Source: Pseudoalteromonas translucida KMM 520
GTDB lineage: Bacteria; Pseudomonadota; Gammaproteobacteria; Enterobacterales; Alteromonadaceae
Reading direction: 5' to 3'
Assembly (NCBI RefSeq): GCF_001465295.1
Contig: NZ_CP011034.1
Coordinates: 1 to 32,000 of the forward strand
Length of the DNA: 32,000 bases
Shown here: positions 2,675-29,694 of the stretch, piece by piece
Position numbering within the stretch: position 1 is the first letter of the stretch
Layout: every line of letters begins with the position of its first letter
Made by a program: the position numbers and the translations under genes
The notes under the pieces: generated by a model
Seen by the model: the letters and a program-made list of their open reading frames with translations, nothing else
Told to the model about the DNA's origin: nothing
Databases searched by the model: none

Positions 2675-3769
2675 ATGAGCTTAAGTCATTTGAGCCTCAA
2701 ATATTTTCGTAATATTGAGGCGCTGACGCTAGAACCAGTTAACGGCGTTAATATAATTTATGGTGAAAACGGCAGCGGAAAAACCAGCCTTTTAGAAGCT
2801 ATTTATTACCTTTCACACGGCAAATCTTTTAGAACATCAAAACATAAAAGTATTATTGCGCATCAGCAAGAGCAGTTTGTAATTCATGGCCGCAAAGCAA
2901 TACACGACTTATCTATTCCTATTGGTATTAGTAAAACCCAAGCGGGCGAAACTAATTTAAAAATACAAGGTAAGGCGAGCCGAAAAATATCAGAACTTGC
3001 ACAGCTTATGCCGGTACAAATAATTACTCCAGAGAGCTATTCGTTATTTTTTGGTGGGCCTAAAGAGCGTAGAAAGTTTTTAGATTTAGGTTTGTTCCAC
3101 GTGGAACATGAGTTCTTCTTTTTATGGCAATCGTTCAATAAAGTGTTAAAACAACGAAATGCGCTACTAAAAAGTAAGCCAAAGAATTATTTTGACCAAA
3201 TTAAGTTTTGGGACAAAGAATTTGTTAGACTGGCTGAGCAAATAAATAAATTAAGAATGGCGTATATAAGTAGGTTTAAGCAGCAGTTTTTTGATAAAAT
3301 GTGTGCAGAATTAACGCTAATACGCGATTTAGAAATAAGCTTTAATGCCGGTTGGAAAGAGAGCGAATCTCTTAGCGATGCATTAGAGTTAAACTTTGAG
3401 CGAGATGCTCGCCAAGGTTTTACCAGTAAAGGGCCTCATAAGGCTGATTTTAGTTTTAGTGTCGCTGGCAGTAGCGTTGAGAATATTTTCTCTCGTGGAC
3501 AATTAAAGCTATTACTTTATGCGTTAAAAGTAACGCAAAATAGCTTAATTGAGTCAGAGACAGATAAGCAATCTATATTGCTAATAGATGATTTACCTTC
3601 AGAGTTAAGCGAAGATACAAAAGAGAAAGTGGGGCAATTATTAGCTCACTGCAGTTCTCAAATTTTTATATCTTCAATTTTGTCTGAAAGTATTTCTGCT
3701 GTGGTGGAACCCATGCAACGAGAACTGCAAATGTTCCACGTGAAACATGGCAACCTAATAACAAGATAA
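2675..3769 (+). CDS. recF: DNA replication and repair protein RecF
   Basis: The 364-aa product has the Walker A motif GENGSGKTSLLEA, an SMC-like signature (FSRGQLKLL) and Walker B (LLIDDLPSEL). Gene order is dnaN-recF-gyrB. Confidence 0.96.
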   Translation: MSLSHLSLKYFRNIEALTLEPVNGVNIIYGENGSGKTSLLEAIYYLSHGKSFRTSKHKSIIAHQQEQFVIHGRKAIHDLSIPIGISKTQAGETNLKIQGKASRKISELAQLMPVQIITPESYSLFFGGPKERRKFLDLGLFHVEHEFFFLWQSFNKVLKQRNALLKSKPKNYFDQIKFWDKEFVRLAEQINKLRMAYISRFKQQFFDKMCAELTLIRDLEISFNAGWKESESLSDALELNFERDARQGFTSKGPHKADFSFSVAGSSVENIFSRGQLKLLLYALKVTQNSLIESETDKQSILLIDDLPSELSEDTKEKVGQLLAHCSSQIFISSILSESISAVVEPMQRELQMFHVKHGNLITR

Positions 3770-6208
<2,439 letters not shown>

Positions 6209-27842: not shown

Positions 27843-28931
27843 ATGGATCAGTCATCTGGCAAGCTTGCCCACTGGCTTGCCTTTTATATGTGTAAAGGGT
27901 TGGGTATTAAAACCCTTTTAGCACTATCTAAAAACCATTCCCTTGAGTCATTGTTTGGCTTATCTCATCAGCAATTACTGCAATTAGGGCTAAGTGCTAA
28001 TCAAGCTACTAATTTGTTGCACACTAATTGGCAGCAAATTACGCATTATGAACAGTTAATCCTACACAATAATATAACGGTTATTAGTATTTTTGATGCC
28101 GCTTACCCCGAAGATTTAAAACAAATAGCCAGTGCGCCTTTATTGCTTTTTTGCAAAGGCGATGTGTCGTTATTAACTAGCCCACAAATAGCCATAGTTG
28201 GGAGCCGTAACGCCACCCCCACGGGGCTGGAAATAGCTGCTGAGTTTGCATATCAACTTACCTTAGCTGGAATCACTATTACTTCAGGCATGGCCCGCGG
28301 TATAGACGGATCTGCGCATAAAGGGGCCTTAGCTGGCAGCGGAAAAACCATTGCCGTGCTGGGTACCGGTGTTGATATTTACTACCCTAAGCAGCATAAG
28401 CTACTTACAAATCAAGTATTAGAGCAGGGCTTGCTTGTAAGTGAGTTTTTACCTGGTACTGCCGCGAATGCGCATAACTTCCCGCGTCGTAATCGTATTA
28501 TATCGGGGTTATCGTTGGGGGTACTTATTGTTGAGGCTGAAATTAAAAGCGGTTCGCTCATTACCGTACGCTATGCGCTGGAGCAAAATAAAGAAGTATT
28601 TGCTGTTCCCGGCTCGATTAAAAACCCACTTGCCCAAGCGAGTCATTTTTTAATTAAGCAAGGTGCTAAGCTCGTGGAAAATGTAAGTGATATTCTTGAT
28701 GAGGTGAGCTTTACTTATCAAAGTAGTTTTTTAACTACAGAGCAGTCAACCCAAACGAATAAAGACTCCCAGTGTGAGGTATTAAATAGTATTGGCTTTG
28801 AGGTAACCAGTGTTGATGACATTGTTCGCCGTGCTCAGTGGCCAATTGATAAAGTGCAAGCCAGGTTGCTGGACTTGGAACTAGATGATCAAATAGAGCG
28901 AGTTTTAGATGGTTACATCAGGGTCTGTTGA
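27843..28931 (+). CDS. dprA: DNA processing protein DprA (Smf)
   Basis: The 362-aa product has the Rossmann-like DprA core (IAIVGSRNATPTG, TSGMARGIDGSAHKGAL, NFPRRNRIISGLS, VVEAEIKSGSLIT) and a C-terminal winged-helix region. The last three codons and the stop lie inside an inverted-repeat arm (see findings). Confidence 0.94.
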   Translation: MDQSSGKLAHWLAFYMCKGLGIKTLLALSKNHSLESLFGLSHQQLLQLGLSANQATNLLHTNWQQITHYEQLILHNNITVISIFDAAYPEDLKQIASAPLLLFCKGDVSLLTSPQIAIVGSRNATPTGLEIAAEFAYQLTLAGITITSGMARGIDGSAHKGALAGSGKTIAVLGTGVDIYYPKQHKLLTNQVLEQGLLVSEFLPGTAANAHNFPRRNRIISGLSLGVLIVEAEIKSGSLITVRYALEQNKEVFAVPGSIKNPLAQASHFLIKQGAKLVENVSDILDEVSFTYQSSFLTTEQSTQTNKDSQCEVLNSIGFEVTSVDDIVRRAQWPIDKVQARLLDLELDDQIERVLDGYIRVC

Positions 28932-29185
28932 CCTTTGCGGGTTAATATTTGTTCAAACTAGAGGTGATTTAATCGCGGCGCGAGATTTGTAACCTAGTGG
29001 GCTAAGTAAAAACCGAGCAACAAAGAGTTAATTGCCCCTAGGCAGAACCCTTCGGGTAGCGCCTGTTTGGCATTAATGCTGCGTTATCGCCAATTTATGG
29101 GAAATAACCACACCACATAGGCTCTGCCTTGCCTAAATACCAAACAGGCTGCTGCAAATTTAACCTTGAAAGATTAACAGACCCT
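28920..29185. mobile_element. MITE-like non-coding segment bounded by ~32-bp imperfect terminal inverted repeats
   Basis: The left arm (28920-28951) is AGGGTCTGTTGACCTTTGCGGGTTAATATTTG. The reverse complement of the right arm (29155-29185) is AGGGTCTGTTAATCTTTCAAGGTTAAATTTG. They match at 26 of 32 aligned positions, including a perfect terminal 10-mer. No ORF longer than 15 codons lies inside. The alternative reading is a structured RNA. Confidence 0.4.
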
Positions 29186-29220
29186 AAACTAAGTACTTAA
29201 GCTAAATGCGAGGTGGTGAT

Positions 29221-29694
29221 ATGTTTGAGGTGCTTATGTATCTTTTTGAAAACTATATTCACAACGACGCTGGGCTCTTCATTGAACCTAATGAATTGAC
29301 CGATGAATTATTACGAGCTGGTTTTAATCAAGCCGAAATATTTAAAGCACTAGATTGGTTAGAGCAGCTAGCCGAATTACAGCATAGTGACACATCACCA
29401 TATTTAATCACTGACTCGCCACAAACAATAAGAGTATTTACCGACCATGAATGCAAAATGCTGGATGTGCAGTGTCGTAATTTTTTAATGTTTGTTGAAC
29501 GCATTGGCGTTACTAATGGTGTTACCCGTGAAATGGTAATGGACCGCTTAGCAGCGCTAGATAAACCTTTTATAGGGTTAGACGATTTAAAGTGGGTAGT
29601 GTTAATGGTGCTATTTAATGTACCCGGAGCAGAAGTGGCTTGTGAGCAAATGGAAGATCTTATATTTGACCAGCCCGGGGACTTACTTCACTAA
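29221..29694 (+). CDS. smg: Smg protein (DUF494)
   Basis: MFEVLMYLFENYIH is the canonical Smg N-terminus. The ribosome-binding site GAGGTG is at 29210-29215. The ORF-track start 29206 is an over-extension. Confidence 0.93.
   Translation: MFEVLMYLFENYIHNDAGLFIEPNELTDELLRAGFNQAEIFKALDWLEQLAELQHSDTSPYLITDSPQTIRVFTDHECKMLDVQCRNFLMFVERIGVTNGVTREMVMDRLAALDKPFIGLDDLKWVVLMVLFNVPGAEVACEQMEDLIFDQPGDLLH

Follow-up and report, generated by a model that had tools for sequence, protein, structure and literature searches.

The genes dprA and smg are normally almost contiguous, and the question raised by this locus of Pseudoalteromonas translucida KMM 520 is why they lie 289 nt apart (28932 to 29220) in the 32,000-nt stretch analyzed here (assembly GCF_001465295.1, contig NZ_CP011034.1, positions 1 to 32,000 of the forward strand), which is referred to below as the window. 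A first-pass annotation, made from the letters of the window alone, had attributed the gap to a 266-bp segment that is bounded by inverted repeats, sits on the dprA stop codon at positions 28920 to 29185, and resembles a miniature transposable element with inverted repeats (MITE). The gene calls confirm the gap, and the segment lies where it had been placed. With a probability of roughly 0.85, we conclude that it is a copy of a non-autonomous MITE family of marine Gammaproteobacteria, bounded by terminal inverted repeats (TIRs), that was inserted at the 3' end of dprA in a sub-lineage and is polymorphic. The event is an ordinary one, in which a gene's 3' end is polymorphic for the insertion of a MITE; the family to which the copy belongs is apparently undescribed and structurally constrained.

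The first line of evidence comes from the two genes themselves. The dprA coding sequence (27843 to 28931, plus strand) encodes a protein of 362 amino acids ending in ...DGYIRVC, and its final 12 nt (28920 to 28931) are derived from the element. Translation agrees with the earlier proposal that the left arm of the segment supplies the last three codons and the stop (AGG GTC TGT and TGA, read as R, V, C, and stop). In-silico removal of positions 28920 to 29185 gives a DprA of 363 amino acids ending in ...DGYIKLST and a stop codon; only 20 nt, which include the GAGGTG ribosome-binding site of smg, then separate the two genes, so that the deletion product predicted in the first-pass annotation was recovered on recomputation. 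With the 266-bp segment in place, the distance between dprA and smg is 289 nt instead of 20. Beyond it, positions 29186 to 29220 of the plus strand hold the former 3' end of dprA (AAA CTA AGT ACT TAA), no longer used, together with the native 20-nt spacer and its GAGGTG site. The smg gene (DUF494; 29221 to 29694, plus strand) is intact, with its ATG at 29221 and a product of 157 amino acids.

Comparison with relatives places the departure in the window. The closest DprA in the database, at 98% identity, has 363 amino acids and ends in ...DGYIRLST, so that the window protein differs in length by one residue (362 versus 363) and in its tail (RVC rather than KLST or RLST). Other Pseudoalteromonas DprA proteins have 360 to 365 amino acids with tails such as KLSTRG, KLSAGR, and RVR; as had been anticipated, the relatives compared end in KLST, RLST, or similar, and none ends in RVC. 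Where the DNA of other species was inspected, the dprA-smg spacer is compact (1 to 29 nt) and element free, and the junction is likewise compact and free of the element in all of the more distant relatives, among them locus L004 (dprA flank with 78% nucleotide identity), P. porphyrae, and Pseudoalteromonas sp. strain SCSIO 43210, which agrees with the initial assumption that the two genes are normally close neighbors. A native RVC tail was considered and rejected: DprA of the P. porphyrae type ends natively in RVR, has a 29-nt spacer and no element, and is therefore unrelated.

Further evidence for insertion is the coexistence of filled and empty alleles. Alleles were gathered from contigs encoding exactly the Smg of the window (L127 to L132) or exactly the RVC-ending DprA (L133 to L136). 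The site is empty in L127, L128, L130, and L132, as it is in L001 to L003, and it is filled in L129 and L131, whose junctions are identical to those of the window, and in L133 to L136. Strains with an identical Smg protein are thus found in both states, and the empty sites that the first-pass annotation had suggested looking for in relatives exist. The junction of L127 (GATGGTTACATCAAACTAAGTACTTAAGC...) is base for base that of the in-silico deletion, i.e., the window minus these 266 bp. L128, L130, and L132 share another empty junction (...ACATCAGGTTAAGTAC...), and their flanks are 99.4 to 99.7% identical to the window, compared with 98.1 to 98.7% for those of L127. L128 (GCA_040308585.1, empty) and L129 (GCA_040309385.1, filled) contrast in state, and the flanks of both are 99.7 to 99.8% identical to the window. 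L001 is a metagenome contig whose site is empty; its smg call is split into pieces of 53 and 88 amino acids (2946 to 3434), which hints at a frameshift or a misassembly there.

The inserted element (28920 to 29185, plus strand, 266 bp) has a 264-bp core, GGGTCTG...CAGACCC, and 2 further bp that correspond to a TA duplication. It starts with AGGGTCTGTT and ends with AACAGACCCT. The starting tip occurs just twice in the 32 kb, in inverted orientation, against a chance expectation of 0.03, and two matches were found in 0 of 100 shuffled sequences. Gapped blastn of the ends reproduced the imperfect arms of about 32 bp noted earlier, with 26 of 32 matches and one gap between the left TIR (28920 to 28951) and the right TIR (29155 to 29185); without gaps, 23 of 32 were counted by eye. 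An inverted-repeat search placed the arms slightly farther out, at 28913 to 28945 and 29160 to 29192, with 76% complementarity. The element is noncoding, its longest stop-free stretch being 36 amino acids with no open reading frame (ORF) of 30 amino acids or more within it, and its G+C content is 44.7%, versus 40.7% for the window. Its predicted fold is much more stable than those of shuffled versions (z scores of -4.2 on the plus strand and -5.8 on the minus strand). A simple scan of positions 28700 to 29400 detected no sigma-70-like promoter and no intrinsic terminator.

That this segment is one member of a dispersed family follows from its many copies with fixed ends. A blastn search of the region against PLSDB matched 86 places in 18 chromid or plasmid records, mostly chromids of Pseudoalteromonas, which hold as many as 22 copies apiece, and the matches start at window position 28920 and end at about 29187; copies in Vibrio and Catenovulum are about 70% identical. 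An exact-pattern scan for the arm consensus, covering one genome per species (GTDB species genomes), returned at least 120 stretches from Pseudoalteromonas, Shewanella, Colwellia, Pseudocolwellia, Thalassotalea, Psychromonas, Paraglaciecola, Cognaticolwellia, a metagenome-assembled genome (MAG) of Francisellaceae, and others. Two of the 120 stretches listed, L011 (a Nitrospirae MAG) and L124, were discarded as chance matches inside unrelated sequence. When these loci were searched locally with the element by blastn, 85 full-length copies were recovered at 66 to 94% identity, all 85 sharing the same ends (window positions 28920 and 29186 or 29187), in size classes of about 267, 280, 295, and 315 bp. 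Multiple copies, fixed ends, and the presence of both empty and filled alleles support the reading of the segment as a MITE.

The copies show no bias in orientation relative to neighboring ORFs (13 sense, 17 antisense); 19 lie between convergent genes and 9 between divergent genes. Several loci contain TIR-only derivatives of about 55 bp, in which the two terminal repeats are joined as a hairpin with CTAG-type flanks (L083, 2626 to 2680; L040, about 3406 to 3460; L061, about 5563 to 5617; L060, about 5732 to 5790). Such derivatives are usual for MITE families and were counted in favor of that assignment. In L072 (2518 to 2927), two copies are arranged head to tail and share one CCCTAGGG junction; where the ends meet, a CTAG target of the preferred type is restored, and this may favor insertion beside existing copies. 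Copies were also present in assemblies of unrelated taxa, namely a 382-bp contig of Desulforhopalus vacuolatus (L069) and the 12-kb contig of the Francisellaceae MAG (L039), and these probably reflect contamination or misbinning, not the true host range. Seven draft contigs (L007, L056, L062, L073, L092, L093, and L109) end within a copy, and the repeat therefore breaks short-read assemblies. A relationship to ERIC and a phage origin were both rejected, since blastn of the element gave no match in 5,426 genomes of Escherichia coli, which carries ERIC, and none in phage records, and one pattern scan of viral contigs likewise gave none. The searched literature yielded no published name for the family, although an earlier description may exist.

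The flanks of the copies reveal how the family chooses its targets. Over the 85 full-length copies the pattern is YTA|GGGTCTG...CAGACCC|TAR, and 67 of these copies have TA on either side; for them the inferred target tetramers are CTAG (29), CTAA (15), TTAA (14), and TTAG (7). A second pair of orthologous sites, filled in L023 (...GGCTA|GGG...CCC|TAGTTT) and empty in L125 (...GCGCTAGTTT), shows one TA becoming two, and the TG...TG flanks of L123 fit a genuine duplication of 2 bp at a site outside the target rule. A 4-bp duplication of the IS5 type at YTAR is ruled out, because flanks of the TTA...TAA type cannot be 4-bp direct repeats. The statement in the first-pass annotation that no target site duplication is evident holds for the window copy, which is flanked by CA...TA; in the family, TA duplication is the rule. 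At the window site the target in the empty allele is TCAA, one base off the preferred YTAR, and the missing duplication is attributed to this noncanonical target rather than to another mechanism; CA...TA flanks also occur at three other copies.

The TA-flanked YTAR sites and the TA duplication in the L023-L125 pair point to a TA-targeting cut-and-paste transposase. The element would have been mobilized in trans by a TA-duplicating DDE enzyme, most likely of the IS630/Tc1-mariner type judging from the target rule; the alternative lies in the IS5-family groups, some of which make 2-bp duplications. The IS630/ISY100 branch of the Tc1-mariner elements is known to insert at TA with a 2-bp duplication (PMC2170065), and a preference for TA within 5'-CTAG-3' is given in the title of Tenzen and Ohtsubo (1991) as cited there.

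The same flanks bear on a different origin, in which the element would be a miniature derivative of Tn3 (a TIME or an IMU-like element) moved by a Tn3-family transposase. The tip GGGTCTG resembles the ends of the Tn3 family (GGGGTCTGA...), and a length of about 270 bp is near that of the 288-bp IMU. The TIR of IMU in turn matches Shewanella ISSod9 (PMC3184786). The family shares with TIMEs a similar length and a TIR tip resembling GGGGTCTG, but TIMEs make 5-bp duplications, whereas this family makes a TA duplication. No 5-bp direct repeats are found at any of the 85 copies, the flanks are TA/TA in YTAR, and filled and empty alleles differ by the core plus 2 bp, not plus 5, which makes a Tn3 derivation extremely unlikely.

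The filled alleles also record some history since the insertion. L133 (3578 to 3890) and L134 (3578 to 3886) carry longer forms, of 313 and 309 bp, at the same junctions as the window. At this site the 313-bp form differs from the 266-bp form by a 47-nt block (AGCTTCCGCGTCCTGCTCACGCCCCTTACCTACATCCATGTAG plus GCAA) with flanking GCAA direct repeats, whose place in the window would be after position 29016. Because copy-specific variants are common to both forms, they descend from one insertion and a later indel. The same switch between long and short forms is seen at another orthologous site (long in L108, 3542 to 3854; short in L005, 20001 to 20268, and in L102), and the 47-nt module could reflect recurrent slippage across a hairpin or could be a tiny nested mobile unit. 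L106 has a related 48-nt module about 20 nt farther 5'.

The bases next to the insertion point (29186 to 29189) divide the alleles further. They read AAAC in the filled alleles and L127, AGGT in L128, L130, L132, and L001 to L003, and AAGT in L004, the AGGT and AAGT forms each being followed by TAAGTAC. Because the element-free ARGT-TAAGTAC form is common to L001 to L003, L128, and L004, it is ancestral for the group. Polymorphisms in the flanks are mosaic, the right flank of L134 being L001-like and that of the window L128-like, and this pattern shows recombination around the insertion. The simplest history of these alleles would begin with a preexisting AAAC haplotype, into which a single element would have inserted, after which recombination would have carried the filled tract onto other backgrounds. 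Within a sub-lineage of the species, the element would have entered the 3' end of dprA at ATC^AAA (TCAA), exchanging the last four codons and stop (KLST and stop) for RVC and a stop read from the left repeat and moving smg, together with its ribosome-binding site, downstream by 266 nt. The copy would then have diversified by the 47-nt internal indel and several single-nucleotide polymorphisms (SNPs); it now occurs on recombined flanking haplotypes and is still polymorphic.

The opposite polarity, with the filled state ancestral at this site and the empty alleles arising by secondary excision or deletion, draws its support from L127. This allele has AAAC, which otherwise occurs only beside the element; it is identical to the filled allele except that the 266 bp are absent, as expected after precise excision or a deletion at 1-nt microhomology; its flanks are also less window-like than those of the AGGT-type empties. 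The more distant relatives (L004, P. porphyrae, and strain SCSIO 43210) are all compact and element free, however, and the shared AGGT/AAGT-TAAGTAC form indicates that the empty state came first. General loss from a filled ancestor is accordingly very unlikely, while single empty alleles could still be revertants, and L127 is possibly a precise one.

The interior of the element was compared across 41 copies less than 95% identical to one another with RNAalifold, which returned 53 pairs in eight helices. Compensatory changes affect 22 of the 53 pairs, and standard pairs make up 96.4% of the cells, compared with 36 to 43% when the partners are slid by one to three columns; the covariation score is 0.325, versus at most 0.09 with slid partners, and none of 500 shuffles reached any of the five observed measures. 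Helix 1 pairs the TIRs (28921 to 28936 with 29169 to 29184). Within it lie two domains, all coordinates referring to the plus strand. Domain 1 (28959 to 29040) is closed by an 11-bp helix (28959 to 28969/29030 to 29040) and contains inner helices at 28973 to 28981/29017 to 29026. Nine of the 11 closing pairs have changed on both sides across genera, and as many as five kinds of pair occur at a single position; an example of the changes is AGGGGCGATTT/AAATCGCCCCT in Pseudoalteromonas versus AAAAACGTTTT/AAAACGTTTTT in Shewanella. Domain 2 (29056 to 29155) is closed by a helix of 14 pairs (29056 to 29070/29140 to 29155) around inner hairpins at 29089 to 29122 and 29126 to 29132. Just before domain 2, at about 29046 to 29055, a CCC-TTCG-GGT hairpin was read by eye from the alignment and lies outside the counted helices. 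The size variants are insertions at helix tips.

Such conservation raises the possibility that the element is in the first place a structured nucleic acid that moves, i.e., a noncoding RNA gene or a single-stranded DNA fold needed for propagation, with the TIRs as the closing stem and the four-way-junction-like interior as the functional unit, an explanation that partly overlaps with that of a MITE. It gains from the compensatory changes, from the multiple pair types in the 11-bp helix, from the position of the size variants, and from a consensus fold that is better in the plus orientation (-58.5 kcal/mol) than in the minus orientation (-43.5 kcal/mol). The molecule that folds could be RNA, single-stranded DNA, or cruciform DNA. 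The counts of G-U versus A-C combinations, with the predictions of both strands pooled, single out no strand (22 versus 16 for shared pairs; 187 versus 159 for the union), and the random orientation of the copies argues against a need for read-through transcription of one strand. No tRNA-like gene was found, the promoter and terminator scan at the window copy was negative, and Rfam 15 gave no match in the window at the gathering threshold; at an E value of up to 10 the sole hit was PYLIS_2, which at 11 bits versus a 36-bit threshold is noise. Compensatory changes have also been reported for at least one ordinary bacterial repeat family, bcr1 (PMC3184786). On balance, we consider it distinctly unlikely that a structured nucleic acid is what the element primarily is.

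A related possibility is that the family is more than insertion sequence (IS) debris and that its branched fold, with the terminal stem, the two covarying domains, and the small hairpins, is itself selected across at least eight genera. We regard this as unlikely, though a little less so. If it were true, the fold would be the substrate for mobilization through a structure-dependent DNA or RNA step, or the element would be a dispersed noncoding RNA with a role at the level of the host, and the optional 47-nt module could be a second, nested mobile unit. To our knowledge, no such structure-dependent step has been described for TA-duplicating elements.

Several observations weigh against the conclusion that the segment is a MITE copy inserted into an empty site. 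The strongly covarying interior exceeds what a plain IS deletion derivative needs. No autonomous element with the TIRs of the family (TAGGGTCTGTTGA...) was found in the roughly 1 Mb of sequence that surrounds copies at these loci or in TIR searches of PLSDB, and the only TIR-like match under a transposase annotation, in Acinetobacter IS17, lies inside the coding sequence with an E value of 8 and was dismissed as chance. If the CA of the empty allele had simply been duplicated, the flanks would be CA...CA, and the CA...TA of the window copy needs one extra step. Lastly, the closest empty alleles, of the L128 type, differ from the window at three of the four nucleotides beside the insertion point (AGGT versus AAAC) in DNA that is otherwise 99.7% identical, and this difference is possibly a scar of repair that accompanied insertion or excision.

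The searched loci contained no TIR pairs 0.8 to 3 kb apart, no transposase ORFs beside solo ends, and no recurring cluster among about 590 ORFs of 180 amino acids or more; a partner may be located elsewhere in the genomes, outside the searched loci. Accepted families such as Correia likewise have no cognate autonomous IS. The extra step at the window junction could equally be a later C-to-T change or an aberrant junction, and the in vitro reactions of ISY100 occasionally gave aberrant junctions, i.e., non-TA targets or one incomplete TA (PMC2170065). The difference between AGGT and AAAC, finally, is likely the product of recombination among haplotypes.

Among known systems, the IS630/Tc1-mariner-derived MITEs, for example RUP of Streptococcus pneumoniae, are alike in being small, noncoding, TIR bounded, and multicopy. 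RUP is about 107 bp long, whereas the present family measures 266 to 315 bp and has, instead of a simple hairpin, a multihelix interior with compensatory changes; bcr1 of the Bacillus cereus group has a length of about 155 bp. Insertion at TA, the 2-bp TA duplication, and the CTAG/YTAR preference are shared with the IS630/ISY100 mechanism, but a cognate IS630-family transposase or full-length IS with the family TIRs was not found in the searched loci or PLSDB. Correia/NEMIS of Neisseria and ERIC of Enterobacteriaceae and Vibrionaceae are likewise intergenic repeats with TIRs and flanking TA, for which no transposase is known; they are often cotranscribed with their neighbors, have stable RNA folds, and form size variants through internal insertions (see the reviews PMC3184786 and PMC10969869). 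They differ from this family in sequence, as the lack of any blastn hit in the ERIC-carrying E. coli genomes illustrates, in hosts (here marine Alteromonadales and Vibrionales), in being shorter, and in having rod-like rather than branched folds. A parallel to the conserved interior is bcr1, a mobile-looking repeat with a cruciform-like predicted structure kept by compensatory changes, which differs in having 5-bp direct repeats and an unrelated host (PMC3184786).

For the organism, the insertion is a live polymorphism that rewrites the C-terminal tail of DprA and places 266 nt of very stable predicted structure between dprA and smg. DprA loads RecA on incoming DNA in natural transformation. 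The change from KLST to RVC seems to be tolerated, because the tail after ...DGYI varies widely among species and the filled allele has long persisted, as the indel, the SNPs, and the several recombined haplotypes suggest; it is presumably neutral. In the filled allele smg encodes the same protein as in empty strains and keeps its own GAGGTG site, now behind 266 nt of RNA predicted to fold at about -94 kcal/mol, and the structured 289-nt spacer may affect coexpression of the two genes through read-through, processing, or translational coupling. The near-identical strains GCA_040309385.1 (filled) and GCA_040308585.1 (empty) offer a ready natural experiment on operon coupling. Beyond this locus, repeats of this kind break assemblies, confound the annotation of gene 3' ends, and serve as strain markers. 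The copy at dprA also defines a MITE family that is widespread in marine Alteromonadales and Vibrionales and absent from Rfam; its ends are clear, its targets follow the YTAR/TA rule, it comes in several sizes, and compensatory changes have maintained its interior.

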